Positions 1 to 30,859 are shown, numbered from the stretch's first letter. The stretch is 64,000 nucleotides of DNA from an uncultured Clostridium sp. (GCA_964578175.1 CAZOBH010000003.1:10159-74158); one strand, 5' to 3'. Program-made: numbers and translations. The notes: a model not told the origin generated them from the sequence alone.

Positions 1-613
1 CATATTCTTGTAGAGCTAATACTTCATTAACTAAACTTTGATGATAACCTAAATCATTAAAATGATTAATTACTTTACTTTTCATAATAGTATAACTTTT
101 ATTTCTAATTGTTTTCATATATTTAGGTATTAACTTTTCTAATTTATCTTTTTCTAAATCAAAATCATATTTATCTAAATATTCATTAATTATATTATCA
201 TCTACTTTAGCATTTTCTAATTCTTTTCTTATTTTAAATGGACCATCATTACTAAAATTAATTTTATCATTTATAAACGCTTCAGTATAAATTTTATCAT
301 CTAAATATCTTTCTTTAATAAGTCTTTTTATAACATCATTAATAGTGTCGTATTCTATCTCTTTATTTTTTAAATACATTCTAACTTCAAATACAGATCT
401 ATATCTAGTAGAAATATATCTAATAGCTAAATCATATGCTGATAAATTATTGTTTAAGACCTCTATATTATTCATAGTTTCATCATCTATTTCTTTAGTT
501 AATAACATATCTTTTTTTAGAATTAAATCTTCATGTACTTTAATAGTACTTTTATCTTCCAATGTCAATTTATACATACTATTTCTAAGTTTAGTAAATT
601 TTAAAATCTTCAT
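1..613 (-). CDS. recX: Regulatory protein RecX. N-terminal ~204 aa; the C-terminus runs off the window start, so it is absent from the six-frame ORF track.
   Basis: Hand translation of the minus strand gives MKILKFTKLRNSMYKLTLEDKSTIKVHEDLILKKDMLLTKEIDDETMNNIEVLNNNLSAYDLAIRYISTRYRSVFEVRMYLKNKEIEYDTINDVIKRLIKERYLDDKIYTEAFINDKINF... This matches the RecX three-repeat helical pattern (AYDxALRYLSxRxRSExEVRxKL; YLDDxxYAxxF). An AGAGGT RBS precedes the ATG at 613. Confidence 0.6.
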   Translation of the reverse strand, partial: MKILKFTKLRNSMYKLTLEDKSTIKVHEDLILKKDMLLTKEIDDETMNNIEVLNNNLSAYDLAIRYISTRYRSVFEVRMYLKNKEIEYDTINDVIKRLIKERYLDDKIYTEAFINDKINFSNDGPFKIRKELENAKVDDNIINEYLDKYDFDLEKDKLEKLIPKYMKTIRNKSYTIMKSKVINHFNDLGYHQSLVNEVLALQEY

Positions 614-652
614 ATCAATACCTCTAATATTATTATATAAAAAAAGAAGAAA

Positions 653-859
653 TTATTCTTCATCTTTTTTTACTGTTATAAGTCCTTCTGCAACTTCTTC
701 CAATGCTCTTCCAATAGGTTTACTACATTTATAATTTTTCTCAGGCATTTGATAAAACCCAGTTCTTTCCATTTCTCTAGCTCTACGAGAAGCTATATGA
801 ACTAATTCATATTTAGAAGTTACAATATTTAATAATTTGTCTACTGAAGGATAAATCAC
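653..859 (-). CDS. rpoZ: DNA-directed RNA polymerase subunit omega
   Basis: 68 aa. The KYELVHIASRRAREM and GRALEEVAEGL segments match the RpoZ family. Confidence 0.85.
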   Translation of the reverse strand: MIYPSVDKLLNIVTSKYELVHIASRRAREMERTGFYQMPEKNYKCSKPIGRALEEVAEGLITVKKDEE

Positions 860-3622: not shown

Positions 3623-4309
3623 ATGCCAGCTGCAACAATTCATAGATGTGTTGGTAAGAAGATATTAGAAATAACAAATATGTATACTGATGAATATGAT
3701 AAAAAATTATTTGAAATAGGTTGTGTTGCTCCAGATAGTTGGAAGAATACATCTAGATATAAAAATTCTCTATTACCTAAAAAGATTAAAAGACGTGCAT
3801 CTCATTTTTCACCTGAAGGTAAATACATAGAATATTATTTAAACTTTTATGATAAATATAAACCTACTATTGATGATCCATTTATGATGGGATATCTAAT
3901 ACATTTAATGACAGATTTCTACTGGAGATATATTATGTTTTATAATTATTTTAATAGAGATGGATCAATCAGGTTATTAGATGGATCTTCAGTAAATGGA
4001 GAGAAAGGTGTAAGAAAAACACTTCTTAAAAATGAGACAGCAAAGATAGCTACTTTAATTTCAAAAGAATATAAATTAAAATGGCTTGATCAATTATCTG
4101 ATAATGAAATAGAAAGATTAACTAAAATTGATGAGTTAGAATACGATGGTCTAAATGAAACATTAATATATGATAATAAAGAAGCAAATGACACCATCGA
4201 TTATGAATTAAAAGTATATAGAGTAAAAGATTTTAAAAATGGTATTACAAAATGTTCTAATATTATTATTGGAGAATTAGGTAATATAGGAATAGCAGAA
4301 TTATTATAA
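3623..4309 (+). CDS. Zinc-dependent phospholipase C / P1-nuclease-like domain protein, cytoplasmic (no signal peptide)
   Basis: ASHFSPEGKY resembles Bacillus cereus PLC ASHFYDPDNGKTY. An HLMTDFYW H-x3-D metal-ligand pattern and an N-terminal IHRCVG segment are also present. Confidence 0.4.
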   Translation: MPAATIHRCVGKKILEITNMYTDEYDKKLFEIGCVAPDSWKNTSRYKNSLLPKKIKRRASHFSPEGKYIEYYLNFYDKYKPTIDDPFMMGYLIHLMTDFYWRYIMFYNYFNRDGSIRLLDGSSVNGEKGVRKTLLKNETAKIATLISKEYKLKWLDQLSDNEIERLTKIDELEYDGLNETLIYDNKEANDTIDYELKVYRVKDFKNGITKCSNIIIGELGNIGIAELL

Positions 4310-4330
4310 AAAAAATAACATCACAAGATG

Positions 4331-5968
4331 TTATTTTACTATGTCTTTTACTTTTAGTAATTGATCATATACTTTTTCAAAGGATTGGACTACTTTTGGA
4401 TTATAAAGAGTTCCACTTCCTTTTTTTATTATTTCTAAAGGATTATCTAATTCCTTTGTCTCCATATCGTTAAAATCAACTGCTATTTTTAAAACTTGAG
4501 CTGAAATTGGAATAGAATCTCCTTCAACTTTATTAGGAAGTCCTGATCCATCATAATTTTCTTGATGAAAACTAATCATATCTTTAACATAATGATTAAA
4601 AATACGATCTGTATTTCTATATAATATACTATCAAATATAGTAAGACCTATCTGAGTACTACTATTTATTATTTGTAAATCTTCTTCTGTATACTCTTTC
4701 TTTTTTAATATCTTTTTAGGTAAAGTAAATACACCAATATCATAATACTTAGATGCTTCCGTAATCTTTTCTAATCTTTCATTATCGACTCTATATTCTT
4801 CATAATCATCTGATACTTGTTTCATAATTATATTTGTATAAGTACTTATTCTTTTAAGACCAGTTTCACAATCTAATAGATATGATTTTAATATTACTCT
4901 TAATACATTTTTAATATCTTCATGTTGAGTTAATACAATTTCATTTAATGAGTTATTAGATTTATATATTTTAATTAAATTATTCATTCTATGTTTAACT
5001 ATTGGAACAGTAAATGGTTTTTCAAGAACGTCAGCTATTGGGTAGTTATAAGCTTTATTACGAACTTCTTGGTTATCACCACTAATGATTATTATAGGCA
5101 TCTTTGTTATTAAGTTTTTACTAGCTAAATAGTTTAATACATCGAACCCATCAACTCCAGGCATATTTAAATCTAAAAACATACCAACTATCTTTATCTT
5201 TTTTTCTAATCTTTCATTTAAATTATCATCTATTAATTTAATTACTTCTTCTCCATTACTACATACTTTAACTTTATAAGAACCAATAAAACATCTTTTT
5301 AAAATATCACAAGTAACATTATCATCATCAACAATAAGTAATGTTTTTTCTCCTTCTCCTAAATCAGTTAACATAGATTCACTAACTTTTTGACATAATT
5401 CAGGATAAGAATTAGATAAATCCATAGTAGCATTATTTACATATTCAATAATACCTCTTATTTCAGGATTTCTTGATGATACATTTATATCTACTACTCT
5501 ATTTAATTTGATAATAGTATCAGCAACACTATCTAATATTACTTCAATTTTCTTTTCTAATTCTTCTTCTCTAGGACTGTTTTCTACAGTAATTGATTTA
5601 AATTTATCAGGAGTAATTAATAGTAGTACTACATCATTTCCATCACTATCTTTTATTACTTTAGAAACATTTGTATACCAGTTATAAATACCTTCTTCAT
5701 TTTTTTTACGATATTTACATTTTTTGATTTCTCCTGGTCCAAAATTATTAATAGTAATACAATCAATCATTTCCTTTATATCATCTGTATGAACTAACTT
5801 TTCAATATCAGCAAATCTAGTAGTAAATGCATATCTATTTACTTCTTTTAATTCTTTATTATCAATTTTATATTCTATTTCTATATCTTTTAAAGTATCT
5901 AATACAAAAACACCCTCAAAAAAATCAGGTAATATACCTATGATTGATTCAAAATATTCATTATTCAT
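4331..5968 (-). CDS. PAS-like / REC / degenerate HD-GYP three-domain response regulator. The start is probably M14 of the listed ORF, MNNEYFES, which is preceded by AGGAG.
   Basis: Receiver motifs (LIVDDD...; FLDLNMPGVDGFDVL; KPF). The C-terminus has the HD-GYP fold signature with substitutions (YYDIG for HDIG; FHQENYDGSGLP for HHExxDGxGYP). Confidence 0.65.
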   Translation of the reverse strand: MNNEYFESIIGILPDFFEGVFVLDTLKDIEIEYKIDNKELKEVNRYAFTTRFADIEKLVHTDDIKEMIDCITINNFGPGEIKKCKYRKKNEEGIYNWYTNVSKVIKDSDGNDVVLLLITPDKFKSITVENSPREEELEKKIEVILDSVADTIIKLNRVVDINVSSRNPEIRGIIEYVNNATMDLSNSYPELCQKVSESMLTDLGEGEKTLLIVDDDNVTCDILKRCFIGSYKVKVCSNGEEVIKLIDDNLNERLEKKIKIVGMFLDLNMPGVDGFDVLNYLASKNLITKMPIIIISGDNQEVRNKAYNYPIADVLEKPFTVPIVKHRMNNLIKIYKSNNSLNEIVLTQHEDIKNVLRVILKSYLLDCETGLKRISTYTNIIMKQVSDDYEEYRVDNERLEKITEASKYYDIGVFTLPKKILKKKEYTEEDLQIINSSTQIGLTIFDSILYRNTDRIFNHYVKDMISFHQENYDGSGLPNKVEGDSIPISAQVLKIAVDFNDMETKELDNPLEIIKKGSGTLYNPKVVQSFEKVYDQLLKVKDIVK

Positions 5969-6004
5969 ACTACCAACTCCTATTATTGATTTAAGTATAA
6001 CATA

Positions 6005-6030
6005 CAAATAAAAAAAAGACTATCAGTCTT
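6005..6030 (-). terminator. Rho-independent terminator/attenuator between the REC gene and the PAS-REC-HD-GYP gene
   Basis: AAGACT-gat-AGTCTT hairpin followed by U8 on the minus strand. It overlaps the REC stop codon. Confidence 0.5.
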
Positions 6031-6412
6031 ATTTCATTTCCATAATACTAATAGTCTTCTCTACAATATTTCTAACGTTATCAATTGTAAATGGCTTTTT
6101 TAATACATCTATAATTGGATATTCAAATGCTTTTTCAATAGTATCTTGTCCATCATCTCCAGTAATAATAGAAACAGGTACAGTATTAAATAGATTTCTA
6201 TTTCTCATATACTCTAATACTTGAAACCCATCAACTTCTGGCATATTTAAATCAAGAAGCATTCCAACTACTTCTGTTAAATTATTATTTTCTATATAAT
6301 TAATTGCTTCTCTACCATTTTGAGCTCCAAATACATTATATTGTCCTTCAAACGCTTTCTTAGCAACATTAATAATTATATTAGAATCATCTGCAACAAT
6401 TATTGTTTTCAT
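6029..6412 (-). CDS. Single-domain response regulator (CheY-like receiver)
   Basis: 127 aa. IIVADDS, LLDLNMPEVDGFQVL and KKPF receiver motifs. Confidence 0.8.
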   Translation of the reverse strand: MKTIIVADDSNIIINVAKKAFEGQYNVFGAQNGREAINYIENNNLTEVVGMLLDLNMPEVDGFQVLEYMRNRNLFNTVPVSIITGDDGQDTIEKAFEYPIIDVLKKPFTIDNVRNIVEKTISIMEMK

Positions 6413-6413
6413 C

Positions 6414-6773
6414 CTATACCTCCAAATAGTTTTTTACTATTTCTTCTACTTTTTTACATTCTTCTACATATTGATTAAATCTTGTATTAACAAAATTTAT
6501 ATCATTTGATTTACCAGCCATTTCATGTTGATATGATAAATCAGCAAGATTCATTAATCCTAGATATTTACAATCACTTTTAATAGAATGAGCAAGTATT
6601 CCATAGTTTTCCATATCATTTGTATTTTTATAATTATCAAGTTCAACCAATCTTTGTTCTAAACTATTATAGAATTCAGTTAATGTTTCATTGTAAAACT
6701 CAATATCACCTAATAATTCTAAGCCTTTATCAACATCAACACTATTTTCTTTCAAATAATCTATAGTCTTCAT
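6414..6773 (-). CDS. Hpt (histidine phosphotransfer) domain protein. Start corrected to MKTIDYL, which is preceded by AGGAGGG.
   Basis: AHSIKSDCKYLGLMNLADLSYQHE matches the Hpt HxxKG...G signature. The 4-nt overlap with the downstream REC gene suggests an operon. Confidence 0.7.
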   Translation of the reverse strand: MKTIDYLKENSVDVDKGLELLGDIEFYNETLTEFYNSLEQRLVELDNYKNTNDMENYGILAHSIKSDCKYLGLMNLADLSYQHEMAGKSNDINFVNTRFNQYVEECKKVEEIVKNYLEV

Positions 6774-6812
6774 ATACCCTCCTATAATAATTTTAACATA
6801 TTTAATTAAATA

Positions 6813-6851
6813 TAGAATAAAAAATAAAAAAAGTTGACATATATCAACTTT
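6813..6851 (-). terminator. Terminator of der
   Basis: AAAGTTGA-tatatg-TCAACTTT 8-bp stem followed by TTTTTATTTTTTATT on the minus strand. Confidence 0.6.
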
Positions 6852-8145
6852 CATCTTTGTTTTTAAATTGAATTATTATCGGAGTACCTTCTAATTCAAA
6901 ATTCTCTCTTAATTTATTTTCTAGATATCTTTCATAAGAGAAGTGTACTAATTTTTTATTATTAACTCTAAACGTAAATTTAGGAGGTTTAATTCCTGAT
7001 TGGTTTACAAAGAATATTTTTAATCTATTACCTTTATATGAAGGAGGTATATTTAATTGATAAGCATCATTTATAACATCATTTAAGACACTTGTTTTGA
7101 TCTCTCTTTTTATATTTTCTCCTACTTTAATAATTTCAGGCATAATAAGATGTATTCTCTTTTTAGTTAATGCACTACAAAATACTACTGGACAATAAGT
7201 AATAAATTGAAATTCTGCTCTAACTTTTTTAGTAAATTCTTGAATTGATTCAGTTGCAGTATCCCATTTATTAACAACTATTATAAGTCCTTTTCCTTTT
7301 TCTAAAACATATCCAGCTATATGTTTATCATGTTCAATTATTCCTTCTTCAGCATTAATTACAAGCAAACATATATCACTTCTATCAATTGCTTCCATAC
7401 TACGTAATAAACTATATTTCTCAATAGATTCATAGATTCTACCTTTTTTTCTCATACCAGCAGTATCTATTACAACATACTCAGAACCATTATATTTTAA
7501 TACTGTATCAACAGCATCTCTAGTAGTACCTGATACATCACTAACTATAACTCTTTCTTCATTTAATAAGGCATTAATTAAACTACTTTTACCTACATTA
7601 GGTCTACCTACTACTGAAAACTTTAGTCTTTCATCAGTCTCTATGATTTCAGAAGGAAACTTTTCAGTTAATAATTCCATCATTTCATAGAATCCTTGTC
7701 CAGATTCACCACTTACTGGTATATACTTATCAAAACCTAATTCATAGAAATCATATTCATGTTCTGCAAATGATTTTGAATCAATTTTATTAATAGCTAC
7801 AACTACATCTTTTTTAGCTTTTCTTAGCATATCTCTAACTACTAAATCATTTTGAGTAAGTCCTTCTTTTCCATCTACTACAAATAAAACTATATCAGCT
7901 TCATCTATAGCTAGTTCAACTTGAACTCTAATTTCATCATTAAATATTTCTTTGGAAACATCTATTCCACCAGTATCTATAACATTGAAATGTTTATTAT
8001 TAAACTCTCCTTCAGAGTATATTCTATCTCTAGTAACACCAGGAGTATCTTCAATTATTGCAACTCTACTTTTAACTATTTTATTAAATATTGTACTTTT
8101 ACCTACATTAGGTCTACCAACTAAAGCAATAACTGGTAATTTCAT
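6844..8145 (-). CDS. der: GTPase Der (EngA), double GTP-binding domain
   Basis: Two G-domains (GRPNVGKST twice) plus a KH-like C-terminus. Confidence 0.9.
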   Translation of the reverse strand: MKLPVIALVGRPNVGKSTIFNKIVKSRVAIIEDTPGVTRDRIYSEGEFNNKHFNVIDTGGIDVSKEIFNDEIRVQVELAIDEADIVLFVVDGKEGLTQNDLVVRDMLRKAKKDVVVAINKIDSKSFAEHEYDFYELGFDKYIPVSGESGQGFYEMMELLTEKFPSEIIETDERLKFSVVGRPNVGKSSLINALLNEERVIVSDVSGTTRDAVDTVLKYNGSEYVVIDTAGMRKKGRIYESIEKYSLLRSMEAIDRSDICLLVINAEEGIIEHDKHIAGYVLEKGKGLIIVVNKWDTATESIQEFTKKVRAEFQFITYCPVVFCSALTKKRIHLIMPEIIKVGENIKREIKTSVLNDVINDAYQLNIPPSYKGNRLKIFFVNQSGIKPPKFTFRVNNKKLVHFSYERYLENKLRENFELEGTPIIIQFKNKDES

Positions 8146-8173: not shown

Positions 8174-8767
8174 TTAGATAATATCAACTGATAAATTATC
8201 AATCTTTGTAAGTATTTCATCTCTTCCAGTTTTATTAACACTAGAAAATAATACTATATCATCTCCAACTACAATATTTAAAGTATCTGTAAGAATCTTC
8301 ATATTCTTTTCTCTTTTAGATCCAGAAACTTTATCAGCTTTTGTAGCAATTATTGTAACCGGAATATTATAATATTTTAAGAAATTATACATAAGAACAT
8401 CATCTTCTGTAGGCTTATGACGAAAATCTATAAGTAAAAATACTCTTTTTAATTGTTTCCTATTTTTAATATATTCTTCAATCATAAGACCAAATTTCTT
8501 TTGTTTTTCTTTATCTACTAAAGCATATCCATATCCAGGAACATCAACTAAATAAAAGGTTTCATTAACTATGTAAAAATTAAGAGTTTGAGTTCTTCCA
8601 GGTCTTCCTGAAATTCTAGCTAAATTTTTTCTATTAACCAATGTATTTACAAAACTACTCTTTCCTACGTTACTTCTACCTAACAATAAGAATTCAGGTA
8701 AATAATCTTCAGGATATTGACTTAATCTAACTGCAGATATACTAAGTTCAACACTACTAATTTTCAT
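8174..8767 (-). CDS. engB: Ribosome biogenesis GTP-binding protein EngB/YsxC
   Basis: GRSNVGKSSFVN G1 motif and YsxC-family length. Confidence 0.85.
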   Translation of the reverse strand: MKISSVELSISAVRLSQYPEDYLPEFLLLGRSNVGKSSFVNTLVNRKNLARISGRPGRTQTLNFYIVNETFYLVDVPGYGYALVDKEKQKKFGLMIEEYIKNRKQLKRVFLLIDFRHKPTEDDVLMYNFLKYYNIPVTIIATKADKVSGSKREKNMKILTDTLNIVVGDDIVLFSSVNKTGRDEILTKIDNLSVDII

Positions 8768-8769
8768 AA

Positions 8770-9717
8770 TTACACCTCTTCATTCATACTTTTGTAATCT
8801 TTACATACACAATCTAAATCTTTAATAAGTTCATCTACTTTATCTTTTTCAAATACTCTTGCACCAGCAGCAAATTTATGTCCACCGCCATTATAATTTT
8901 CAGCAATTAAATTGATTACAGGTCCACGTGATCTAATATTAAATCTATATACATTGTTTTTAACATCTTCTGATATTATCGTCCATACAAGAACTTCATC
9001 TATATTATTAAAATTATTAATTAGATTCCCTGCACTTGCTGCATCTACATCTAATTCCTTTATAATTTTATCTGTAAGAATTATATAAGCAAGACCATTT
9101 TCAGTAACTATGAAATTTTGTTCAATAAACCCTTGTAAATTTATCTCTTTTAAAGGACGAGAGAAAATATTACTATAAAGAGTTTTTAAATCTAAATCAT
9201 AATCTTTCATCAACTTAGATACTAAATAAAATGTCTTAGAAGTTGTCGAATATAAAAATCTATTAGTATCTGATACTATTCCCATAAATAACATACTAGC
9301 TATTTCATCATTAATCATTAAATCATTCTTATAAACAAAATCCAATATTATTTCACAAGCACTAGATGCTCTATCATCTATATATTCATAATCACAAATA
9401 CTCTCAAAATATGGATGATGATCGATCTTAATACTATAATTGAATCCATCAATGCTTTTAATATCCATTCTTTTTTTATCAGGAGTATCAAGTAATATCA
9501 ATAATCCATTATTATCTTCTAAACTTTTATCTAACCTTGGTAAAAATTTAAACTTAGCACTAGACATACCTGTTGCATAAACTGTTTTATTAGGGAAATT
9601 TAAGTTAATAATTTCTCTTAGTGATAATTGACTACATAAAGCATCTGGATCAGGTCCAGTATGCCTTATAATAGTAATATTATCGAATTCTTTTATTTTT
9701 TCTAATATTTTTTGCAC
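8770..9717 (-). CDS. nrnA: DHH-DHHA1 phosphoesterase, NrnA-type oligoribonuclease / pAp phosphatase
   Basis: DHH N-terminal motifs (RHTGPDPDA). GGGHKFAAGA DHHA1 motif. Confidence 0.75.
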   Translation of the reverse strand: MQKILEKIKEFDNITIIRHTGPDPDALCSQLSLREIINLNFPNKTVYATGMSSAKFKFLPRLDKSLEDNNGLLILLDTPDKKRMDIKSIDGFNYSIKIDHHPYFESICDYEYIDDRASSACEIILDFVYKNDLMINDEIASMLFMGIVSDTNRFLYSTTSKTFYLVSKLMKDYDLDLKTLYSNIFSRPLKEINLQGFIEQNFIVTENGLAYIILTDKIIKELDVDAASAGNLINNFNNIDEVLVWTIISEDVKNNVYRFNIRSRGPVINLIAENYNGGGHKFAAGARVFEKDKVDELIKDLDCVCKDYKSMNEEV

Positions 9718-9725
9718 TATAATAC

Positions 9726-10904
9726 CTATTTTATTAAGTCTTTAGTATCCATTGCTATCATTAATTCTTCATCAGTTGGTACTAAATATGATAGAATTGA
9801 TGAATCTTCAGCACTTATCTTTCTAAGTTCTCCACGAACATCATTTGCTTTATTATCAACTTTTACACCTAAAACATCTAATTTGTTTAAGATTTCAGCT
9901 CTAGTAGTAGCACTATTTTCCCCAATTCCAGCAGTAAATGTAATTACATCACATCCACCTAGTTCTACATAATATTGAGCTATATATTTAACTACACTAT
10001 TAACGAATAAATCTTCAGCTAATTTACACCTTTCGTTTCCTTCTTTGATTCCATCTTCGATATCGCGTGAATCAGAACTAACTCCACTAACACCTAAGAA
10101 TCCAGATTTTTTATTTAAAGCATTAACTACTTCTCCAGCACTTAATCCTTCTTTTTCCATAACATAAGGAACCATAGATACATCAATATCTCCTGAACGT
10201 GTTCCCATAACTACTCCTGCAAGTGGAGTAAATCCCATAGATGTATCAACACATTTTCCAGAATCAATTGCGCATATACTTGCTCCTTGTCCTAAATGAC
10301 ATGAAATAACTTTTAAATCATCTCTTCCAAGTTCTTCAGCAATTTTCTTAGATATATATTTATGACTTGTTCCATGAGCACCATATTTTCTAACACCATC
10401 TTTTTCATACCATTCATATGGTACAGCATATAAGAATCTTTCCTTTGTCATTGTTTGATGAAATGCTGTATCAAATACTGCAACCATTGGAGTATTAGGT
10501 AAAATCTTTTTAAATGCCTTAATTCCAATAACATGTGCAGGATTATGAAGAGGAGCAAGATCAGATAATTCAATAATATCATTTAGAACTTTATCAGTGA
10601 TTACTACTGACTTATCATATCTATCAGCACCTTGTACTATACGATGTCCAACACCATCAATTTCTTCATAACTTGATATAATTTTTAATTCTATTAATTT
10701 ATCAAGTAATATCTTTACTGCTTCAGAATGATCTTCCATTTCAGCATCTTCTTGAATTTTAAATTCTTTATTTTTTATAGTGTAACAACTTCCATCAGTA
10801 CCTATTCTTTCAAATAGACCTGAAACCATTACTTCGTTAGTGTCCATATCAAATAATTTAAATTTTAATGAACTACTACCAGCATTAATTGACATAATTT
10901 TCAT
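9726..10904 (-). CDS. ackA: Acetate kinase
   Basis: MKIMSINAGSSSLKFKLF N-terminus and acetokinase-family length and motifs. Confidence 0.9.
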   Translation of the reverse strand: MKIMSINAGSSSLKFKLFDMDTNEVMVSGLFERIGTDGSCYTIKNKEFKIQEDAEMEDHSEAVKILLDKLIELKIISSYEEIDGVGHRIVQGADRYDKSVVITDKVLNDIIELSDLAPLHNPAHVIGIKAFKKILPNTPMVAVFDTAFHQTMTKERFLYAVPYEWYEKDGVRKYGAHGTSHKYISKKIAEELGRDDLKVISCHLGQGASICAIDSGKCVDTSMGFTPLAGVVMGTRSGDIDVSMVPYVMEKEGLSAGEVVNALNKKSGFLGVSGVSSDSRDIEDGIKEGNERCKLAEDLFVNSVVKYIAQYYVELGGCDVITFTAGIGENSATTRAEILNKLDVLGVKVDNKANDVRGELRKISAEDSSILSYLVPTDEELMIAMDTKDLIK

Positions 10905-10957
10905 AATATTCCCTCATTTCTACTTCTATATTATACTATAATACATATTATTTTAAA

Positions 10958-10984
10958 AGAAAAAACTTAGTATCTAACTAAGTC
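10958..10984 (-). terminator. Terminator of thiI
   Basis: ACTTAGT-tagat-ACTAAGT hairpin followed by a U-tract. Confidence 0.5.
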
Positions 10985-10991
10985 TTATACT

Positions 10992-12176
10992 TTATAAAAT
11001 ATCATCAAAAGAATCATCTTTTTTATCTGTAATTGTAATTGTTTTTATTTTACCAATACATTTATTTAATAGAGTTTGATAATCAAATTTATCTTCTTCT
11101 TCACCACAAACATATAGTTTTGGATTAATAACTGGATGCTTAGGCACAAAAATTGTGCAGCAATCTTCAAAAGGAAGAATGCTTATGTCATATGTATCTA
11201 TTTTTTTTGCAATATCTATTATTTCAAGTTTATCAAGACACGCAACAGGTCTTACAACAGGCATATTAGTTACTTCATTAATTACAGACATACTAGATAG
11301 AGTTTGTGATGCTACTTGACCAATCGATTCACCATTAGTAATAATTTGACAATCCTTTTCTCTAGCTACTATTTCACTTATTCTATACATCATTCTTCTC
11401 ATAATAGTAATACAATAATCTTCTCTTACATAATGATATATAGCTTCTTGTAATTCAGTAAAAGGAACTATATGTAGATCAATATAATCAGTATACTTTG
11501 CTAACTTTTTAGCAAGATCAATAACTTTATTTCTAGCTTCAATTGAAGTATGAGGCATAGATTCAAAATATATACAATCTAATTTAACTCCTCTTTTTAA
11601 AGTTAAATAACCAGCAACAGGAGAATCAATTCCTCCACTAAGCATAAGAAGTCCTTTACCTAAAGTACCACTAGGATATCCACCAAGCCCTTTATATACA
11701 TTAGTATAAATATAAGTATAATTCTCTCTTATTTCCACATGAACAGTAAGTTCAGGATTATTAACATCTACTTTGATATTATCTACATTCTTAAGAATTA
11801 CTCCTCCTAATTTAGCAGAAAACTCAATACTATTATACGGAAAAGATTTATAACTTCTTTTTGTTTCTACTTTAAATGTACTGGGATTAAATTCTTTAAC
11901 CACTTCTACTGCTTTTTCATTTATTTTATCAATATCAGTATCTATTCTATATGCAACATCATATTCATGTATTCCAAAAATAGAATTAACTACTTCTAAT
12001 ACTTTATCTAATTCACTATCTTGAAATTCAATATACATTCTTGCTAGTTCTTTTTTTATATTAACATCTAATCCATTTAATTTATGTTTTAAATTTTGAT
12101 ACAAAGTATTTACAAAGAACTTTCTATTTCCTTTTTTAGTTGTTAATTCTCCATATTTAATAAGAATTACACGCAT
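10992..12176 (-). CDS. thiI: tRNA 4-thiouridine(8) synthase ThiI
   Basis: THUMP-like N-terminus and SGGIDSPVA PP-loop. Confidence 0.85.
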   Translation of the reverse strand: MRVILIKYGELTTKKGNRKFFVNTLYQNLKHKLNGLDVNIKKELARMYIEFQDSELDKVLEVVNSIFGIHEYDVAYRIDTDIDKINEKAVEVVKEFNPSTFKVETKRSYKSFPYNSIEFSAKLGGVILKNVDNIKVDVNNPELTVHVEIRENYTYIYTNVYKGLGGYPSGTLGKGLLMLSGGIDSPVAGYLTLKRGVKLDCIYFESMPHTSIEARNKVIDLAKKLAKYTDYIDLHIVPFTELQEAIYHYVREDYCITIMRRMMYRISEIVAREKDCQIITNGESIGQVASQTLSSMSVINEVTNMPVVRPVACLDKLEIIDIAKKIDTYDISILPFEDCCTIFVPKHPVINPKLYVCGEEEDKFDYQTLLNKCIGKIKTITITDKKDDSFDDIL

Positions 12177-12190
12177 AGTATCACCTCTTT

Positions 12191-13438
12191 TTATAAATTA
12201 CTAACCCAAATTGATATATACTTAGATAATATATCATATCCTTTACCATTTAAATGTATTTCATACATATCTTCATTTCTAAAACAAGATCCATTTTCAA
12301 CATCTAATAATTCACTATAAGAAATTGACTTTTTATTTTCATATACTTTTCCACTATATAAGTCTAAATAAGGAATATCCCATTTATTTGCTATTTCTTT
12401 TCCAAGTTCTATTTGTTTATCTCTATCTACAGTTTTTTGATTTTTAGCTTTAGGAGTACTATAAGTTAATATATATCCTATTTTAGCATCTTTATGATAT
12501 TTTCTTAAATAATAAAATATTTCTTCTAATCCACCTGCATAAGTATCAGTATCAAACTCATCTACTCTTTTTGAATCTGCTATTTCTCCGTTTTCTACGC
12601 CTCTACTTGCATCATTTATTCCACCTTGTACAATTATATAGTCGTACTCTTGATCTTTAGTTTTTTCAACTTGATCAATTATAGATTTATTGGAATGAGA
12701 AATAGTTGCACCATTTATTCCATAATTCTCCCAATCCATAAAATTAGCAAAACCAACTCTAGATGCCCATCCACCATATTTTTCATAAGTTGCTGCTGTA
12801 ATACTATCACCAATAAATAGTATTTTTTTACCTTCTAATTTATGTTTGTTGTTATAATATATAGTTTGTTCACTAATACTTTCTAATCCATTTTTGGATT
12901 TAGCTGTACATACTACTTTAGAATTATATATAGATTTATTTTTAACTTCACAATTGAATGATAAAATACCTATTTTTGATTTAACTTCATACATTGATTT
13001 ATAATCTAATTCTTCATTTTTATTATTTTGTATTATTACTTCATATTTTGGTTTTATAACAGGAAGACTTGCATCTACTAAATAGTATTTTTCATCACAA
13101 TATTTATTAACTTTTCCATTAACATCAGTAATTTTTATACAAATATGTTTCTTTTCCTCATACTCAGGATAAGAAATATTCAAATTAATAATTCTTTTAT
13201 TAACATCTACTTCACTGTTTAAAAAATCATTACAATAATCTTCAGTTGTAAAACAATAATCAATAGATTTAATTTTCTTATTAAAATTTAAAATTATTGA
13301 TTTAACTATAACACTATTATAATATGAATCAGTACCTGATTTCTTACTATAAGTAAAATATATTGGTGAACTATATATATTCCCACCAAAAATAGTTAAT
13401 GTTGTAATTAATATTATTAAGTATATAATCTTTTTCAT
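12191..13438 (-). CDS. Secreted SGNH/GDSL-family hydrolase with an N-terminal domain of unknown function
   Basis: Signal peptide. Block I FIGDSIT and block III GGINDA. Confidence 0.65.
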   Translation of the reverse strand: MKKIIYLIILITTLTIFGGNIYSSPIYFTYSKKSGTDSYYNSVIVKSIILNFNKKIKSIDYCFTTEDYCNDFLNSEVDVNKRIINLNISYPEYEEKKHICIKITDVNGKVNKYCDEKYYLVDASLPVIKPKYEVIIQNNKNEELDYKSMYEVKSKIGILSFNCEVKNKSIYNSKVVCTAKSKNGLESISEQTIYYNNKHKLEGKKILFIGDSITAATYEKYGGWASRVGFANFMDWENYGINGATISHSNKSIIDQVEKTKDQEYDYIIVQGGINDASRGVENGEIADSKRVDEFDTDTYAGGLEEIFYYLRKYHKDAKIGYILTYSTPKAKNQKTVDRDKQIELGKEIANKWDIPYLDLYSGKVYENKKSISYSELLDVENGSCFRNEDMYEIHLNGKGYDILSKYISIWVSNL

Positions 13439-13487
13439 ATTTTTTCTCCAAGTGATACCTATTATATATCTTAATTATTCATTTTTC

Positions 13488-13519
13488 AACAAATAAAAAT
13501 AGGTATTTAAACCTATTTT
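13488..13519 (-). terminator. Hairpin terminator, probably bidirectional
   Basis: AAATAGGT-atttaa-ACCTATTT stem flanked by A/T tracts. Confidence 0.45.
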
Positions 13520-14181
13520 ATTATAACTATTGAAAGTAGTTTTTCTTTTTCATGAACAAGTGTTATTTCAGCACTAGTTGGATACCCTGAACCATCATTA
13601 TCGTATTCCCATGAAAGACTTACTTTATAAGCATTTTGATCATTAATATCAATCTTTCTACTAGAATCTGTATATTTATAATTAGTCTTTTTTACAGTTC
13701 CTTCATCAACTTCTTTTACAACAGGAAGTTTTTGTTCACGATCACCATATACATTACTTTTTATATATTTATATATAGTATCAGTAGCTTTTAATTTAAA
13801 GTTTTCTTTAATTGATGAATGAACAAAATCTAATCCACCAACATCTTGATTAGTTATTCTATTATCAAATGAATAAAAATCAATTACAAATAATTTAGAT
13901 ACTAATAAAGCGTATTGTTCTTCATCTATTTCTTCACTCTCTAATACTTTTTTTAATTCAGTATAATATTTTTTATATAAATCAGAACTATTTTCATATA
14001 AATTGTATTCATACCCATTTATACTTTCAACTTTTTCTGCAACTTTATTTACTTTATTTTCTGTTTTCTTATTATCTTTATTTAAAAATATAAATACAGC
14101 ACCAACTATTAAAGCAACAATTATTAAAAATATTAATAATTTCAAAAATATTCTATTTTTTTTCTTATTCTTCTTTCTCAT
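13513..14181 (-). CDS. Membrane-anchored hypothetical protein
   Basis: N-terminal TM (FLKLLIFLIIVALIVGAVFIFL) and a K-rich N-terminus. Confidence 0.4.
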   Translation of the reverse strand: MRKKNKKKNRIFLKLLIFLIIVALIVGAVFIFLNKDNKKTENKVNKVAEKVESINGYEYNLYENSSDLYKKYYTELKKVLESEEIDEEQYALLVSKLFVIDFYSFDNRITNQDVGGLDFVHSSIKENFKLKATDTIYKYIKSNVYGDREQKLPVVKEVDEGTVKKTNYKYTDSSRKIDINDQNAYKVSLSWEYDNDGSGYPTSAEITLVHEKEKLLSIVIIK

Positions 14182-16322
14182 TAATTATTAGCTCCCTCTA
14201 TAATTTCAGATTCATTTAATTTTTCTTTACTTTCTTCAGTTGTTTCTAATAAATCATATACAATAATACTATTAGATGTACTAAGTAGTTTCTCTGCATA
14301 TGCAGAATTTTCTTCAATATAGTTATCAGGTAATATAGTATTTTCTTTAATCATATATGTTTCATTACGTTGTGCATTATAATAAACTTTATTAGTTAAC
14401 CAGTTACCTGTTGGGAATACTACTATATTATCTTTAGTTTTAAGACTAAACATATCATGTCCTAATTCATACTTGTTATAAATACCTAACATATTACCAA
14501 GAGTTGGCATTACATCATACATCCCCATTACAGTAGTTATTTCCTTCTTCATAGATACTCCCTTTATCTTTTTCTCTTTAGTCCATATAAAGAATGGAGT
14601 ACTTCTATTAAGTTCATATTCATAACTACCAAATTCTACATAATTTTCATCATCTGGACTTAAAATAGAATCTGTTTTGTAATCATAATTATAAAATTTT
14701 ACATAATCTGCTTTAGGAAGTCTAGCATCATGATCTCCATAAAATACTATAGCTGTATCATCAAGGATTCCTTTTTCCTCAAGATTATCCATTAACTCAC
14801 CTAAAGCTTCATCTGCGTAGTGAACTGATTTAAAATAACGACCAAGTTTAGTACCTTCCATATAAGGATAAACATTTTCAACTGTTTCTCCTTTTTCATT
14901 TTTTTCTTTAACCTTTAATGTAACATCAAATCCATCATCTACATAGAATGGAGTGTGATTAGTTAACATTATCAATATAGAATACAATTTGTCATGTTCA
15001 CTTCTTAATTTATCTATTTTATCAACAGATTGACGGAAGAATGATTTATCAGATAACCCAAGTCCTATAACTTCATCAATATCATATTCACTTTTACCAA
15101 TAACTTCATCATATCCTAAAGTCTTATGCATTGTTGCTCTATTCCAATAAGATGCAACATTTCCATGCATTGATACTGAATAATATCCTTTATCTTTTAA
15201 TAATTTAGGAATACTAATATAATGTCTATCAAAATATGAAACAAATGCAGTACCATTATTTGATGGCATTAAACTAGTATTAAAAGTAAATTCACTATCA
15301 CTACTTGTTCCTACACTAACTTGAGTATAAAAATTACTAAAATATAAACTTTCTTTTGCTAATTTAGTTAAATTTGGAGCCACTTCTTCTCCATTAATTT
15401 TAAGACCTATAACAAAGTCTTGTATACTTTCACCATGAATAACTATTATATTCTTACCTTCTAATATATTTGAATATTTATTAACTGTATTCGTGTCTTC
15501 TCTATCTGCAAAGTAATCATTAAATTTTCTAAGAGCTTCATCATATCCAAATAATGCTGATATTTTTGGTTCTACACTTTTTATAACGTCATTTATTTGA
15601 TAAGTATAGATACCATATTTAACTACTATATATTCTCTATTCCATTGTTTAGAAATTCTACTAATATCAGTTGATGATAATGTAGACATAAATATTAAAG
15701 CTACACTTACACCTAAAAGTACATTAGTAAACCATTTATTTTTTTCTTTATTATTAGCCTCAATATTAGTAAAATATTTTCTCTTAGATAAATTAATATG
15801 TAATATTATTAAAAGAATAGGCACTAAAATATATACAAAATCTTTTAACTTTAATATTGCAAAGATTGCATCACTTACATCCTCCCCATATTTAGCAGTT
15901 GATAAAAGTGATACTGATACATATGAAGAATAAAAAGTATAATATACAGAATTTATTATACAAATAAATGCATAAATTAAAGTTAGAAAATGCCAATAAA
16001 TCATTCTTATTTTATGTCTCATTAAATAACCAAATGAACCAAGTAAAACTACTACAGCAAAATCTGCTAGAATTGGTTGAATTTGCCATATATTAGATGG
16101 ATTATTAGTTGTTAAATATCTAACTAATATTCCACTAATAACATTTAAAACTATGTATATAAAAAAGAATAAATTAGTTGTTATATATAATTTTATATAA
16201 GAACCAAAATCTTTAAATACTTCAATTGGATTATTTTTAAGATTTTTAAGAAATTTTTTAAATTTATGAATTGTATTATTTTTTTTACTTTTAATCTTTT
16301 TCATAACATTCCTCTTTATCAC
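14181..16322 (-). CDS. ltaS: LTA-synthase family protein (polytopic N-terminus plus extracellular sulfatase-like domain)
   Basis: Five N-terminal TM helices followed by a sulfatase/LtaS catalytic-domain pattern (IVIHGESIQ...; 713 aa). Confidence 0.7.
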   Translation of the reverse strand: MIKRNVMKKIKSKKNNTIHKFKKFLKNLKNNPIEVFKDFGSYIKLYITTNLFFFIYIVLNVISGILVRYLTTNNPSNIWQIQPILADFAVVVLLGSFGYLMRHKIRMIYWHFLTLIYAFICIINSVYYTFYSSYVSVSLLSTAKYGEDVSDAIFAILKLKDFVYILVPILLIILHINLSKRKYFTNIEANNKEKNKWFTNVLLGVSVALIFMSTLSSTDISRISKQWNREYIVVKYGIYTYQINDVIKSVEPKISALFGYDEALRKFNDYFADREDTNTVNKYSNILEGKNIIVIHGESIQDFVIGLKINGEEVAPNLTKLAKESLYFSNFYTQVSVGTSSDSEFTFNTSLMPSNNGTAFVSYFDRHYISIPKLLKDKGYYSVSMHGNVASYWNRATMHKTLGYDEVIGKSEYDIDEVIGLGLSDKSFFRQSVDKIDKLRSEHDKLYSILIMLTNHTPFYVDDGFDVTLKVKEKNEKGETVENVYPYMEGTKLGRYFKSVHYADEALGELMDNLEEKGILDDTAIVFYGDHDARLPKADYVKFYNYDYKTDSILSPDDENYVEFGSYEYELNRSTPFFIWTKEKKIKGVSMKKEITTVMGMYDVMPTLGNMLGIYNKYELGHDMFSLKTKDNIVVFPTGNWLTNKVYYNAQRNETYMIKENTILPDNYIEENSAYAEKLLSTSNSIIVYDLLETTEESKEKLNESEIIEGANN

Positions 16323-16357
16323 TATAATTTTACATCAAATAACAAAAAAAGAAAATA

Positions 16358-17233
16358 TTACTTTTCTTTTTCTTCGTATTTAGACACATTAAGCGCCATA
16401 CCCATAACAAATATATATGATAAGAAATAAATCCACCACATCAAAATAATGATGTTAGAAATATTTCCATATAATGAATTAACATTGGCAGTTAAACCTA
16501 TGTATATTGCATATAGCTTTGTAAATAAAACCCATGAAAGACTGGTAAATAATACTCCATAGTTAACATTTTTTCTAGATATTTTAGCATCAGGTGCCAT
16601 AATATATATAATCTTAATTAACCAAAATATTATAAAATATGAAATCGGTAAGTTAAATAATTTATATGTAATTCTAATATATCTACCAATATCATCGTTA
16701 TGAAAAAATGTAGATATAATTGTTACGATTTGATTACCAAGAACAGGTACTATCATAATGAACAAAAATAATAGAACCATTATAAATAATATACCTACTG
16801 ATTTAGCTCTATCATATAAATATCCTTTATTTTTAATATGATAGATTCTATTTGATACTACGATTATTGTATAAGTACCATTACTAGCTAAAATAAGGGC
16901 TGATATATAAAATATTATATTATTAATATTAGCTGAACTACCTTTTGATATAGTTTCAATCATTTGAACAAATACATTTGGTAATTCATTAGCTATAAGC
17001 CTATTTAAAAATGAATTAGATACATTAAAGTTAGAACTAATAGCAAAAACTAAAGCTATTAATGGTACTAACATAAGTAAAAAGAAGAAAGCAAGTTGTC
17101 CAGGAAGAACTTGCATTTCTGTTGATCTAAAGTTCTTATTTAATCTTTTAGCTAAAGCTTTTATTCTTTTCTTAGTCTTTTTCATTTTATTTATAATCCT
17201 CTTTATTTGTACGCATTTCAAGAGTTGCTTCAT
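16358..17233 (-). CDS. YihY/BrkB family membrane protein. The true start may be the internal Met at 17185, which would remove the overlap with the upstream gene.
   Basis: PGQLAFFFLLMLVPLIALV matches the YihY N-terminal signature. The protein is polytopic. Confidence 0.65.
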   Translation of the reverse strand: MKQLLKCVQIKRIINKMKKTKKRIKALAKRLNKNFRSTEMQVLPGQLAFFFLLMLVPLIALVFAISSNFNVSNSFLNRLIANELPNVFVQMIETISKGSSANINNIIFYISALILASNGTYTIIVVSNRIYHIKNKGYLYDRAKSVGILFIMVLLFLFIMIVPVLGNQIVTIISTFFHNDDIGRYIRITYKLFNLPISYFIIFWLIKIIYIMAPDAKISRKNVNYGVLFTSLSWVLFTKLYAIYIGLTANVNSLYGNISNIIILMWWIYFLSYIFVMGMALNVSKYEEKEK

Positions 17234-19226
17234 TTATAGCATCATCAATAGTTTTCATTCCATCTTTAATCATACTGTAACCTATAGCAGCACCAAATCC
17301 ATATGGTAATTCTTTTAATTCTTTAGTTAATTTCTTAGTATAAGTTTCTATTTGTTTATCACTATAACCAATTAAATAAATTAAGAATTCATTACCATCA
17401 GTTCTGATTAATTCACTGTTTTCAAGTTGAGTATTTAATAATGTAGATGCAGCTTGAACTATTAACTTATCCCCTGCTTCATGTCCATAGTTATCATTTA
17501 CGTATTTAACATTATTTAAATCAACTATAACTATAGTTTGAGGATATTTTTCACTCTTATTCCACGCTTCCATATTGAAGTTTAAATAACTACGATTTTT
17601 AAGAGAAGTTAAATTATCAATATATTTTCTTCTTTCTTCTTTTTTAACCTTCTTAACTACTTTTTTCTTTCTTAATAAAGTATATAAAGAAATAAGCACT
17701 AATACAGGAATTAGAATTATTACCAAGATAATTATATATAATTCATTAAAACTCTTATTATCTATATTATTTCTATTATTAATTTCATTTATTCCCATAT
17801 TACGATAACGATAATATGAATTAGTGGCCATTAAATAATTTAAAATATCAGAGAATTCTTTTTCTTCCCCAGATACCATAAAGGCATAATCTTTTGTAAA
17901 TGTATTTGTATATAATACTTCATAGTTTTTAAATTTAGAATTACGATAATAATTATATACTTCTAAATCAACCACTATTATGTTATCTCTACTTTCTTTT
18001 ATCATTTTATCCAAATTATTAAAAGGTATAATATTTGCTTTACTATTATCTTTGAAATAATTAAATAAGGCAGTATTTTCTAATATTCCAATACTCTTTC
18101 CTTTTAATGATTCAAAAGATGTAACTACATTAGAAGAACTTAATTTAGATATAACAACATATTGTTCTACAAATGATGTATTTGATTCAATATAATTTTC
18201 ATTAGCAACATCATAATAATTAAAGTATATATCTACTTCTTTATTTTCAACTGCTTTTAATAGACTTTCAATACTATCATATTTTTTATAATTAAAATCT
18301 ATTCCAGTAAGTCTATTTATTCTTGAAATATATTCTCCACAAATACCTATTAAAGCATCACCGTTTTTTACTTCATAAGGATAATTTTCAACATATCCAT
18401 AAGTATAGGTTTTAGCTTGTAATGCACTCTTAGTACTATCAGAAATATTTTTAGATTCTATATAATAGTTAAATAACGCATCATTATATTTTTCAACATA
18501 ATCATTTTCTTTCCAATAATCAAAGTACTTTGCTATTATTTTATTAAATCTATCATTTTCATTTTCTGTAGTTATTACAATCTTTTTAGACATTTCAGAT
18601 AAAGTATAATTAATTGTATACTTATCATTTAATGTTTTATTTAAATACATAGTATTTGGTATGATAATTGAATTAACTTCAGATGTATCCAAAGCATTAA
18701 ATAAAAGATCAGCAGTATCATACTTTTTATAAACTAATTTATCTACATTACTTAAATAATAACTAACTTCTGCAGCATCATTAGTAAGAACTCCTACTTT
18801 AGTATTAGATATATCTAATACATTATCTATCTTTTGAGGAGTAGTACTTACAAGTACATATACATCTTCTCCTAGAAGTCTATCATTTTTACCTAAATCT
18901 TCATTATTATCTAATACTCTAAATCTTAATCCTGTTGTTGTAGGATTATTTTCTTTAGAATAACTAATTTTATTAAATTCTACCTTTCCTACAGTTTCAA
19001 AACTTTTTAAAAATGATGATATAATTCCATTATTTTCTCCATATACTGGATAATCATTAGGTATTTCTACATCTACTAAAGAATCTATATTTTTTTCAAG
19101 CCAGTTTTTATCTGTAACACTTATTGATTCTCCATTATTACGATAAAAATAAATAGATAAACCAGCAAAAACTATAATTGCTATTAGAATCGGAATAAAT
19201 ATTATCCATATTTTTTTATTTTTCAT
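17187..19226 (-). CDS. Membrane sensor: TM, ~480-aa extracytoplasmic region, TM, then a GGDEF-domain protein with a degenerate active site (RTDGNEF)
   Basis: GGDEF-domain hallmarks (DNLTSLKNRSYL; DLNNVKYVNDNYGHEAGDKLI) are present, but the GG[DE]EF motif reads DGNEF. Confidence 0.7.
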   Translation of the reverse strand: MKNKKIWIIFIPILIAIIVFAGLSIYFYRNNGESISVTDKNWLEKNIDSLVDVEIPNDYPVYGENNGIISSFLKSFETVGKVEFNKISYSKENNPTTTGLRFRVLDNNEDLGKNDRLLGEDVYVLVSTTPQKIDNVLDISNTKVGVLTNDAAEVSYYLSNVDKLVYKKYDTADLLFNALDTSEVNSIIIPNTMYLNKTLNDKYTINYTLSEMSKKIVITTENENDRFNKIIAKYFDYWKENDYVEKYNDALFNYYIESKNISDSTKSALQAKTYTYGYVENYPYEVKNGDALIGICGEYISRINRLTGIDFNYKKYDSIESLLKAVENKEVDIYFNYYDVANENYIESNTSFVEQYVVISKLSSSNVVTSFESLKGKSIGILENTALFNYFKDNSKANIIPFNNLDKMIKESRDNIIVVDLEVYNYYRNSKFKNYEVLYTNTFTKDYAFMVSGEEKEFSDILNYLMATNSYYRYRNMGINEINNRNNIDNKSFNELYIIILVIILIPVLVLISLYTLLRKKKVVKKVKKEERRKYIDNLTSLKNRSYLNFNMEAWNKSEKYPQTIVIVDLNNVKYVNDNYGHEAGDKLIVQAASTLLNTQLENSELIRTDGNEFLIYLIGYSDKQIETYTKKLTKELKELPYGFGAAIGYSMIKDGMKTIDDAINEATLEMRTNKEDYK

Positions 19227-27089: not shown

Positions 27090-27267
27090 TACAGATTTTT
27101 TAGAAAAGAAAACTGAGTTATTTGATCAAGTTGATCAAGAAAGAAAAATTAAAGAACAAGAAAATAGAAAAAGTATAAATCCTAATGATGAAAAGTTTAT
27201 TAATGCTTTACCAGATTGGGATTTACCACCACTTTATGAAGGAGTAAGGAGAGTGGTTAGAAGATGA
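27076..27267 (+). CDS. Gene B: small acidic/basic protein (63 aa), translationally coupled to gene A
   Basis: Overlaps gene A by 14 nt. GGTAGGTGA RBS. C-terminal DWDLPPLYEG motif. Confidence 0.45.
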   Translation: MLEDNTDFLEKKTELFDQVDQERKIKEQENRKSINPNDEKFINALPDWDLPPLYEGVRRVVRR

Positions 27268-27695
27268 CTTATTATGAATGGATTGATTATTTAGATAAGT
27301 TAAAACATAACGCTATAACCGATAATGATGTTAACAAAATTGATCAAGCCAATTTAACCTATACTGGTGATATTAAAATAAGATTTCTAAATCACATCGT
27401 AGATTTAATAAACTATAGACTTAATGCATCAGTAGATAACTTTGTTTTAAAATTAGACAGAGTTAAACAAGATCAAAATACTTTACTTTTAGAATTAGGA
27501 TATATTAAAAATGAAATGGTATTTGCAAAGAAATTAGCTTCAGTAAGACATTTTGATGAAAATACCAAAAACTCATTACTTCAAAATATACATAAGTTTG
27601 GTGAAGATATAAATGGTCAAATAAGAAATGCATTTATGAATGATACAAATCCAGAAATAGCAATGATCATAAATAATTTGGATTTAAATAGTTAG
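27264..27695 (+). CDS. Gene C: 143-aa helical protein of unknown function
   Basis: ATGA start/stop overlap with gene B. AAGGAGAG RBS. Confidence 0.5.
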   Translation: MTYYEWIDYLDKLKHNAITDNDVNKIDQANLTYTGDIKIRFLNHIVDLINYRLNASVDNFVLKLDRVKQDQNTLLLELGYIKNEMVFAKKLASVRHFDENTKNSLLQNIHKFGEDINGQIRNAFMNDTNPEIAMIINNLDLNS

Positions 27696-27703
27696 GAGGA
27701 TTT

Positions 27704-30849: not shown

Positions 30850-30859
30850 TTTATCACCT

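Follow-up and report, generated by a model that had tools for sequence, protein, structure and literature searches.

A standalone histidine phosphotransfer gene beside two receiver genes in an uncultured Clostridium sp., probably the distal half of a phosphorelay with a degenerate HD-GYP-like output domain

In the HptB pathway of Pseudomonas, several hybrid kinases encoded elsewhere in the genome signal through HptB, a single-domain histidine phosphotransfer (Hpt) protein, to the response regulator HsbR (bioRxiv 10.1101/2024.11.25.625174). In Xanthomonas campestris, the hybrid kinase RpfC, which carries both a receiver (REC) and an Hpt domain, relays to RpfG, a REC-HD-GYP regulator (PMC3749722). 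PA2572 of Pseudomonas aeruginosa joins a REC domain to a YN-GYP domain, has no detectable cyclic di-GMP (c-di-GMP) phosphodiesterase activity and regulates virulence; its cognate kinase is no obvious neighbour, and it has been reported to interact with a chemoreceptor-like sensor (PMC3411652). Here we examine a locus in a 64,000-nucleotide stretch of DNA from an uncultured Clostridium sp. (GCA_964578175.1, CAZOBH010000003.1:10159-74158; hereafter the window). Open reading frame (ORF) calling places three ORFs in succession on the minus strand at 4331..6854. They encode a standalone Hpt protein (6414..6773, 119 residues), a single-domain receiver (6029..6412, 127 residues; hereafter the small receiver) and a regulator with PAS-like, REC and HD-GYP-like regions (4331..5968, 545 residues). 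We consider it likely that this locus is the distal half of a His-Asp-His-Asp phosphorelay with its kinase elsewhere, in which the Hpt protein feeds two receivers and the output is non-enzymatic.

A free Hpt gene beside receiver genes is less unusual than an earlier note on this DNA had implied, since the HptB arrangement in Pseudomonas was already known (bioRxiv 10.1101/2024.11.25.625174). As in that pathway, a single-domain Hpt gene adjoins the gene of an acceptor response regulator, and searches by sequence and by structure with the window Hpt protein both place P. aeruginosa HptB (7c1i) among the top matches. The acceptors differ, however: HsbR is a REC protein that acts on HsbA as both kinase and phosphatase, whereas those of the window are a bare REC protein and a PAS-like/REC/degenerate HD-GYP protein, and the host belongs to a low-G+C, Bacilli-like lineage rather than to the proteobacteria. 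The kinase family linked to the locus in relatives also occurs as HisKA-HATPase_c-REC-Hpt proteins, which recalls RpfC. In contrast to the window, where the Hpt protein is separate and no kinase is nearby, the Hpt domain of RpfC is fused to the kinase and the rpf genes lie in one operon. RpfG, moreover, retains its HD dyad and hydrolyses c-di-GMP, whereas the window dyad reads YD, and the window locus adds the small receiver and an N-terminal PAS-like domain on the regulator. The GYP-dependent protein contacts of RpfG provide a model for the output of the window regulator.

The description of PA2572 as a REC domain followed by a domain of HD-GYP fold with Tyr in place of the HD His also fits the window regulator, and the Y-N of PA2572 itself recurs in 31 of 118 members of the window family. 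Unlike PA2572, the window protein has YD and GLP at the two motifs, and PAS-like and helical regions precede its REC domain; the partner reported for PA2572 is a chemoreceptor-like sensor and not an Hpt protein. This likeness is formal and could be a product of convergence. ArcB and BarA share the His-Asp-His-Asp logic, and the window Hpt protein matches their Hpt domains in structure, although all of their transmitter modules reside in one polypeptide. The split Spo0F-Spo0B-Spo0A relay follows the same logic and offers a Spo0F-like role as an alternative for the small receiver. Spo0B, for its part, is not an Hpt-fold monomer of the type seen here. The module is thus a rearranged version of a known signalling scheme, from which it differs in arrangement and detail while the principle is the same.

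The first protein of the locus is an Hpt protein, as the earlier note had proposed from its HxxKS...G signature. The match to Pfam Hpt (PF01627) is marginal: the 119-residue model scores 24.9 bits against a cut-off of 24.6, and the 146-residue ORF obtained by mechanical calling scored 24.1. The same Pfam model matches 13 of 15 homologues. The signature reads H62-S-I-K65-S-D-C-K-Y-L-G72, and His62, Lys65 and Gly72 are invariant among the 15-16 homologues compared. Searching with a family profile recovers Hpt proteins of solved structure (E=1.8e-4), whose His aligns with that of the family. The AlphaFold model adopts a four-helix-bundle fold with a predicted local distance difference test score (pLDDT) of 96. 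When this model was searched with Foldseek, the top 27 matches were all Hpt proteins or domains (TM up to 0.82), including 3myf (the Hpt domain of a Shewanella hybrid kinase), HptB, plant AHPs, BarA, ArcB and YPD1. His62 is the predicted phospho-His.

The small receiver matches Pfam Response_reg (PF00072) with E=6e-20, in agreement with its initial assignment as a single-domain receiver, and its translation contains Asp8, Asp9, Asp54, Thr84 and Lys106. By these residues it reads as a canonical single-domain receiver of the CheY/Spo0F type. Its identity to the regulator REC domain is 43 %, compared with ~25-28 % to the REC domains of the hybrid kinases described below. The 43 % identity between the two window receivers fits a shared Hpt partner. 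Orthologues with 64-81 % identity occupy the same position in three relatives (L009, L013 and L015), whereas the small receiver is only 39-47 % identical to the REC domain of any regulator. We considered whether it might be a recent duplicate of the regulator REC domain and rejected this origin on the basis of these values; because it is closer to its orthologues than to the regulator REC domains, it is an old paralogue.

Four regions make up the 545-residue regulator, which had been described beforehand as a PAS-REC-HD-GYP-like protein. Its REC domain (residues ~208-338; 4955..5347, minus strand) matches Response_reg with E=4.5e-15, and Asp214, Asp215, Asp266, Ser296 and Lys317 are invariant in 33 homologues, with Asp266 as the predicted phospho-Asp. 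The PAS-like domain (residues ~1-120; 5609..5968, minus strand) is less clear: PAS_3 matches it weakly (E ~0.013-0.014, 16.2 bits), below the Pfam cut-off of 25.6, and detects 16 of 33 regulator homologues at E <=0.1 (best 4.9e-6). AlphaFold predicts a helix, three strands, two helices and three strands for this region (pLDDT ~75-88), a modelled topology that would be compatible with PAS. Between these domains lies a linker (residues ~132-201; 5366..5575, minus strand) that is predicted to form three long helices (pLDDT 55-72) and that has no Pfam match. Across the 33 homologues, which range from 33 to 100 % identity, ~65 columns of the regulator are invariant. A scan of species genomes with the regulator returned only a 24 % identical REC domain from a Thermosediminibacteraceae metagenome-assembled genome.

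The C-terminal region of the regulator (residues ~341-545; 4334..4948, minus strand) matches HD_5 with E=1.3e-17 and 64.5 bits, well above the cut-off of 27.2, and its best phmmer and Foldseek matches are the HD-GYP domains of PA4781, PmGH and DvhD. The earlier description holds for the REC domain and for the HD-GYP fold, may hold for PAS, and fails at the catalytic signature, which is degenerate. To map residues, we aligned the regulator family with PmGH and PA4781 fragments and counted 118 homologues. The HD His of PmGH (H221) corresponds to Tyr409 in the window protein and is Tyr in 118 of the 118, whereas D222 is kept as Asp410 (Asn in 31), so that the dyad position reads Y-D in 83 members and Y-N in the 31 already mentioned. 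K225 is replaced by Val413, H250 by Ser437, H277 by Gln469, D305 by Val497 and D308 by Asn500 (Asn in 117 of 118), while H276 is kept as His468. Motif spacing (D366-x-E368-x-x-x-K372) makes Lys372 the equivalent of H189 and shows, on the same basis, that E185 is kept as Glu368. At least five of the eight metal ligands of PmGH (E185, H189, H221, D222, H250, H276, H277 and D305) are thus replaced in the window protein. In place of HHExxDGxGYP the window reads H-Q-E-N-Y-D-G-S-G-L-P, with Leu477 at the position of PmGH Y285; this residue is Tyr in 116 of the 118, so that G-Y-P is kept in 116 family members, and the HH of the motif is YH or HE there.

PmGH loses essentially all c-di-GMP hydrolysis when Ala replaces H189, H221, D222, H250, H276 or H277 (PMC4159591). 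With the HD dyad and the majority of metal ligands substituted in the window protein and throughout its family, phosphodiesterase activity is unlikely, and the regulator most likely hydrolyses no c-di-GMP. The "c-di-GMP-type" label that the output domain had been given is right for the fold and probably wrong for the chemistry. Since Tyr for His is fixed throughout the family, it points to a conserved new state and not to drift. An HD_5 or HD-GYP match alone provides no basis for annotating a c-di-GMP phosphodiesterase in this family, given the family-wide Tyr at the catalytic His. Elsewhere in the window, a 679-residue membrane protein (17187..19226, minus strand) carries a C-terminal GGDEF domain (Pfam 3e-20) with the signature R-T-D-G-N-E-F, not RxGG(D/E)EF. 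Its upstream D..N..GH..GD substrate motifs look intact, and its signature makes diguanylate cyclase activity improbable. This signature bears on whether the organism uses c-di-GMP at all.

No kinase is encoded within ~70 kb of the module. Pfam found no HisKA/HATPase_c kinase among the ORFs scanned, which span 2.3-49 kb of the window, and phmmer searches with four hybrid kinases against all six-frame window ORFs of >=40 residues matched only the small receiver. We extended the search ~9 kb past the left edge of the window using contigs with 99.3 % nucleotide identity that come from other samples. This extension contains recX, a PrsA-like rotamase gene, suf genes, a ROK kinase gene, ssb and others, and no sensor kinase. 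A kinase in the same operon is excluded because der and engB bound the locus upstream and a convergent gene bounds it downstream. The orphan status reported for the module was in this way checked and upheld, also against the possibility then raised of a kinase gene in the same operon just beyond the window.

Relatives provide the link to a kinase family. Homologues of the Hpt protein and the regulator were found only in metagenome-derived sequences. The order der, Hpt, small receiver, regulator is the same as in the window in L015, L009, L004 and L017-L020, and the first two of these share 52-81 % protein identity with the window module. L013 has the receiver gene followed by the regulator gene, and L005 and L021 have the Hpt gene followed by that of a REC protein. 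Three further loci encode hybrid kinases. In L002, one lies directly before the Hpt gene and a second is close by; in L007, two tandem hybrid kinases lie upstream of the Hpt gene. In L012, a 1.38-Mb contig, genes for the Hpt protein, a homologue of the regulator (33 % identical) and a 624-residue HisKA-HATPase_c-REC kinase are consecutive on one strand, without a small receiver. In the linked kinases, which are ~609-625 residues long, HisKA, HATPase_c and REC domains come after a polytopic N-terminus. The second full-length kinase of L007 (7399..9237, plus strand), which is 40 % identical to the L012 kinase and lies between the annotated kinase and the Hpt gene, is missing from the gene calls of that record. 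A profile built from four of the hybrid kinases gave >8000 matches, the top 120 of which were nearly all of 730-980 residues and from other organisms; one kinase homologue is labelled Bacilli bacterium. No member among these top 120 can be tied to the genome of the window as the cognate kinase.

Many members of this kinase family are 870-980 residues long and end in an Hpt domain. To the C-terminal Hpt domains of members of 863-982 residues, the window Hpt protein is 46-53 % identical over its whole length (residues 1-118). A profile search with the Hpt family retrieved 8414 proteins at E <=0.001, and we classified the placement of the Hpt module in 148 of the 150 best cluster representatives. 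The module was C-terminal in a protein of >=600 residues in 41 of these 148, C-terminal in a shorter protein in 50 (mostly likely gene fragments), N-terminal to further sequence in 43, standalone (<=135 residues) in six and otherwise placed in eight. A complete REC domain homologous to that of the window is present in 25 of the 43 proteins with an N-terminal Hpt module, and Pfam confirms both the kinase-REC-Hpt and the Hpt-REC architectures. Given these fusions and the ~50 % identity of the Hpt modules, the free Hpt protein of the window is a split-off transmitter module of an unorthodox hybrid kinase that has moved beside its receivers. The apparent "orphan" is explained by module shuffling, in which the Hpt module is fused to a kinase, beside a kinase, fused to a receiver or beside receivers. 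The Hpt-REC fusions comprise P0337, P0358, P0366, P0374 and ~20 further representatives, either of 250-290 residues or of 400-440 residues with a ~180-residue insert; both halves are homologous to the separate Hpt protein and small receiver of the window.

On this basis we propose that a hybrid kinase of the linked family, probably encoded elsewhere in the genome, would pass a phosphoryl group from its REC domain to His62 of the Hpt protein. Phosphorylated Hpt would then serve the two paralogous receivers encoded downstream, at Asp54 of the small receiver and Asp266 of the regulator. By analogy with the non-catalytic systems described above, the output of the regulator would probably be a phosphorylation-controlled protein contact, and the small receiver would most likely compete for phosphorylated Hpt as a phosphate sink or a second branch. 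A relay from a hybrid kinase through the free Hpt protein had been suggested before. The adjacency of Hpt and regulator homologues to hybrid kinases in L012, L002 and L007 and the ~50 % identity to kinase-fused Hpt domains speak for it, in each case indirectly. Several points weigh against the proposal. That the genome encodes such a kinase is an extrapolation from relatives with Hpt proteins of only 37-50 % identity, the direction of phosphotransfer is one that we infer, and the small receiver could be a donor to the Hpt protein, not an acceptor. Similarly, the non-catalytic output is read from residue substitutions only. The equivalents of D222, H276 and E185 remain in the window protein, and a different metal site or substrate for the HD-GYP-like domain is possible. 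Finally, the window reads GLP, unlike 116 of its 118 relatives; if the GYP loop is the contact surface, the contact may be altered.

Two alternatives concern the source of the phosphoryl groups. In a Spo0F-like relay, an orthodox kinase elsewhere would phosphorylate the small receiver, which would pass the phosphoryl group to His62 and on to the regulator; the small receiver would thereby take the place of a hybrid kinase's own REC domain. Such a flow would account for why the small receiver always adjoins the Hpt protein in the window clade and why Hpt-REC fusion proteins are common. It would also suit the distribution of the genes, as the window clade has a small receiver and no adjacent kinase while the L012 clade has a kinase and no small receiver. 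Against this stands the closer identity of the small receiver to the regulator REC domain (43 %) than to the kinase REC domains (25-28 %), because of which it looks like a paralogue of the acceptor. In addition, the Hpt domains to which the window Hpt protein is ~50 % identical follow kinase REC domains in fusion proteins, which indicates that the ancestral Hpt donor was a kinase-borne REC domain. We regard this direction of flow as unlikely. Acetyl phosphate is usable by many receivers, and the module might instead work without any kinase, with the receivers autophosphorylating from acetyl phosphate, the Hpt protein redistributing the phosphoryl groups and the whole reporting acetyl-phosphate status. 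The lack of a kinase within ~70 kb is consistent with this idea, as is the location of ackA (9726..10904) four genes upstream, in an order (thiI, ackA, DHH, engB, der, Hpt) that is kept in L009, L015 and L017. However, ackA, engB and der are housekeeping genes whose proximity needs no functional reason, and the homologous Hpt protein and regulator are linked or fused to hybrid kinases in relatives; the chance that the module is kinase-independent seems to us very slight.

Two further alternatives concern the output domain and the state of the operon. The regulator could hydrolyse c-di-GMP or another cyclic dinucleotide when phosphorylated, as RpfG does, and its HD_5 match, its HD-GYP fold with PA4781, PmGH and DvhD as best structures, and a GGDEF-domain protein encoded 11 kb away would all suit such an enzyme. 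The active site argues in the other direction, with the HD His replaced by Tyr in every homologue, the equivalents of H250, H277, D305, D308 and K225 replaced and that of H189 being Lys by spacing, and single Ala substitutions at H189, H221, H250 or H277 essentially abolish the activity of PmGH (PMC4159591). The nearby GGDEF protein itself reads DGNEF. We therefore hold an active phosphodiesterase to be highly improbable. It is no more credible that the operon is a decaying remnant, left non-functional after loss of its kinase in a reduced genome. The missing kinase and the degenerate output domain would be expected of a remnant, and the window protein has even lost the otherwise conserved GYP Tyr. 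Decay is difficult to reconcile, however, with the intact state of all three ORFs in several strains that are nearly identical and come from different samples, with phospho-acceptors and ~65 regulator columns that are invariant over 33-100 % identity, or with a Tyr-for-His replacement that is fixed family-wide.

The preferred reading, a relay with a distant kinase and a non-enzymatic output, has a wider and more tentative extension. Metagenome genomes of gut-type low-G+C Bacilli contain members of the PAS-like/REC/"YD-GYP" family, which are 33-100 % identical and number at least several hundred. We offer as a speculation, on which we would place limited weight, that this family is a conserved and permanently non-enzymatic HD-GYP output, a "fossil" c-di-GMP module that acts as a phosphorylation-controlled contact switch, perhaps in cells with little or no c-di-GMP, and that is possibly fed by a split Hpt protein, with a decoy receiver as a buffer. 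Such an output would have kept the GYP loop and lost the metal centre. The DGNEF signature of the window's sole GGDEF protein hints that these cells may have a decayed c-di-GMP system and make little or no c-di-GMP. If a non-enzymatic output were demonstrated, the idea of an inactive HD-GYP regulator of the PA2572 type, based on a single Pseudomonas protein, would come to cover a family that is widespread among uncultured gut Bacilli.

The window is very AT-rich in this region (~24 % G+C), and the minus strand carries nearly all genes. ORF calls bore out the three consecutive minus-strand genes of the earlier note and Pfam bore out their flanks, whereas two of its details had to be corrected. 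The Hpt and receiver genes, said to overlap by 4 nucleotides, are separated by one base, with the Hpt stop codon TAG at 6416..6414 and the receiver ATG at 6412..6410. The upper limit of 6854 is also too far upstream, as the ATG there overlaps der. Translation of the Hpt gene probably begins with the ATG at 6773, which follows GGAGGG by eight bases and gives a length in keeping with homologues of 118-126 residues. We rejected the ATG at 6854 because it lies inside der and would add a hydrophobic extension, from T-rich sequence, that is seen in no homologue. The 27 codons that the ORF finder adds to the Hpt ORF (6774..6854, minus strand) consist of T-rich intergenic sequence with a hairpin and U-run, and we read this extension as an ORF-calling artefact. 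A spacer of 60 nucleotides separates the small receiver gene from that of the regulator, whose start at 5968 is preceded by AGGAG. This start call is the most likely one, as the resulting 545 residues match homologue lengths; a TTG at 6007 is disfavoured, since all homologues fit the start at 5968.

Consensus scans for control elements were uninformative at 24 % G+C: a promoter scan gave 40 sites against 48 expected by chance, and a strict G+C-based terminator scan found none. We therefore folded the intergenic regions and compared them with shuffled sequences. A terminator-like hairpin with a U-run at 4308..4337 (minus strand; 11-bp stem, -10.3 kcal/mol, z = -3.85 versus shuffles) overlaps the regulator stop codon and faces the convergent PLC-like gene. 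A second hairpin with a U-run lies over the der stop codon (6817..6850, minus strand; 8-bp stem, then UUUUUUUAUUUUUU). The whole 77-nucleotide fragment is no different from shuffles (z = -1.15), and this hairpin, which is only suggestive, may separate der from the Hpt operon. The intergenic sequence between the receiver and regulator genes folds no better than shuffles (-3.8 kcal/mol, z = 0.16), and we claim no internal terminator. An Rfam scan of the whole window returned only tRNA-Trp, with no riboswitch or leader near the Hpt operon.

Upstream of the Hpt gene are der (6844..8145, minus strand) and, beyond it, engB (8174..8767, minus strand), both identified by Pfam. The segment at 8770..12176 (minus strand) continues with genes for a DHH/DHHA1 (NrnA-like) phosphoesterase, ackA and thiI; this order, through to engB and der, is the one kept in L009, L015 and L017. 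The presence of an NrnA-like enzyme and acetate kinase beside a phosphorelay may be coincidental housekeeping synteny. Downstream of the regulator, the convergent gene at 3623..4309 (plus strand) encodes a PLC-like protein with a weak Zn_dep_PLPC match. In the 52 %-identical relative L015, a 1643-residue surface protein (Peptidase_C1, Flg_new, dockerin-like) and an SLH protein are encoded between the regulator and PLC-like genes (11729..17619 of that sequence), an insert that is absent from the window (~4310).

Three other features of the window lie outside the module. A 129-residue GTG ORF at 345..734 (plus strand), low-complexity and hydrophobic, is antisense to rpoZ (653..859, minus strand) and is almost certainly spurious. 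At 25350..29275, three plus-strand genes lie amid minus-strand ones and encode proteins of 579 and 143 residues followed by a 523-residue AAA+ ATPase. The first two have no Pfam or PADLOC match, and the ATPase matches PADLOC IetA models with E=2e-32; the island is possibly a defence locus, IetAS-like or of another type, in which no protease partner is recognisable. Finally, two overlapping minus-strand ORFs of 243 and 340 residues at 30241..31882 show only weak matches, to Phage_Gp23 (1.5e-4) and PADLOC Csx27 (9e-5).

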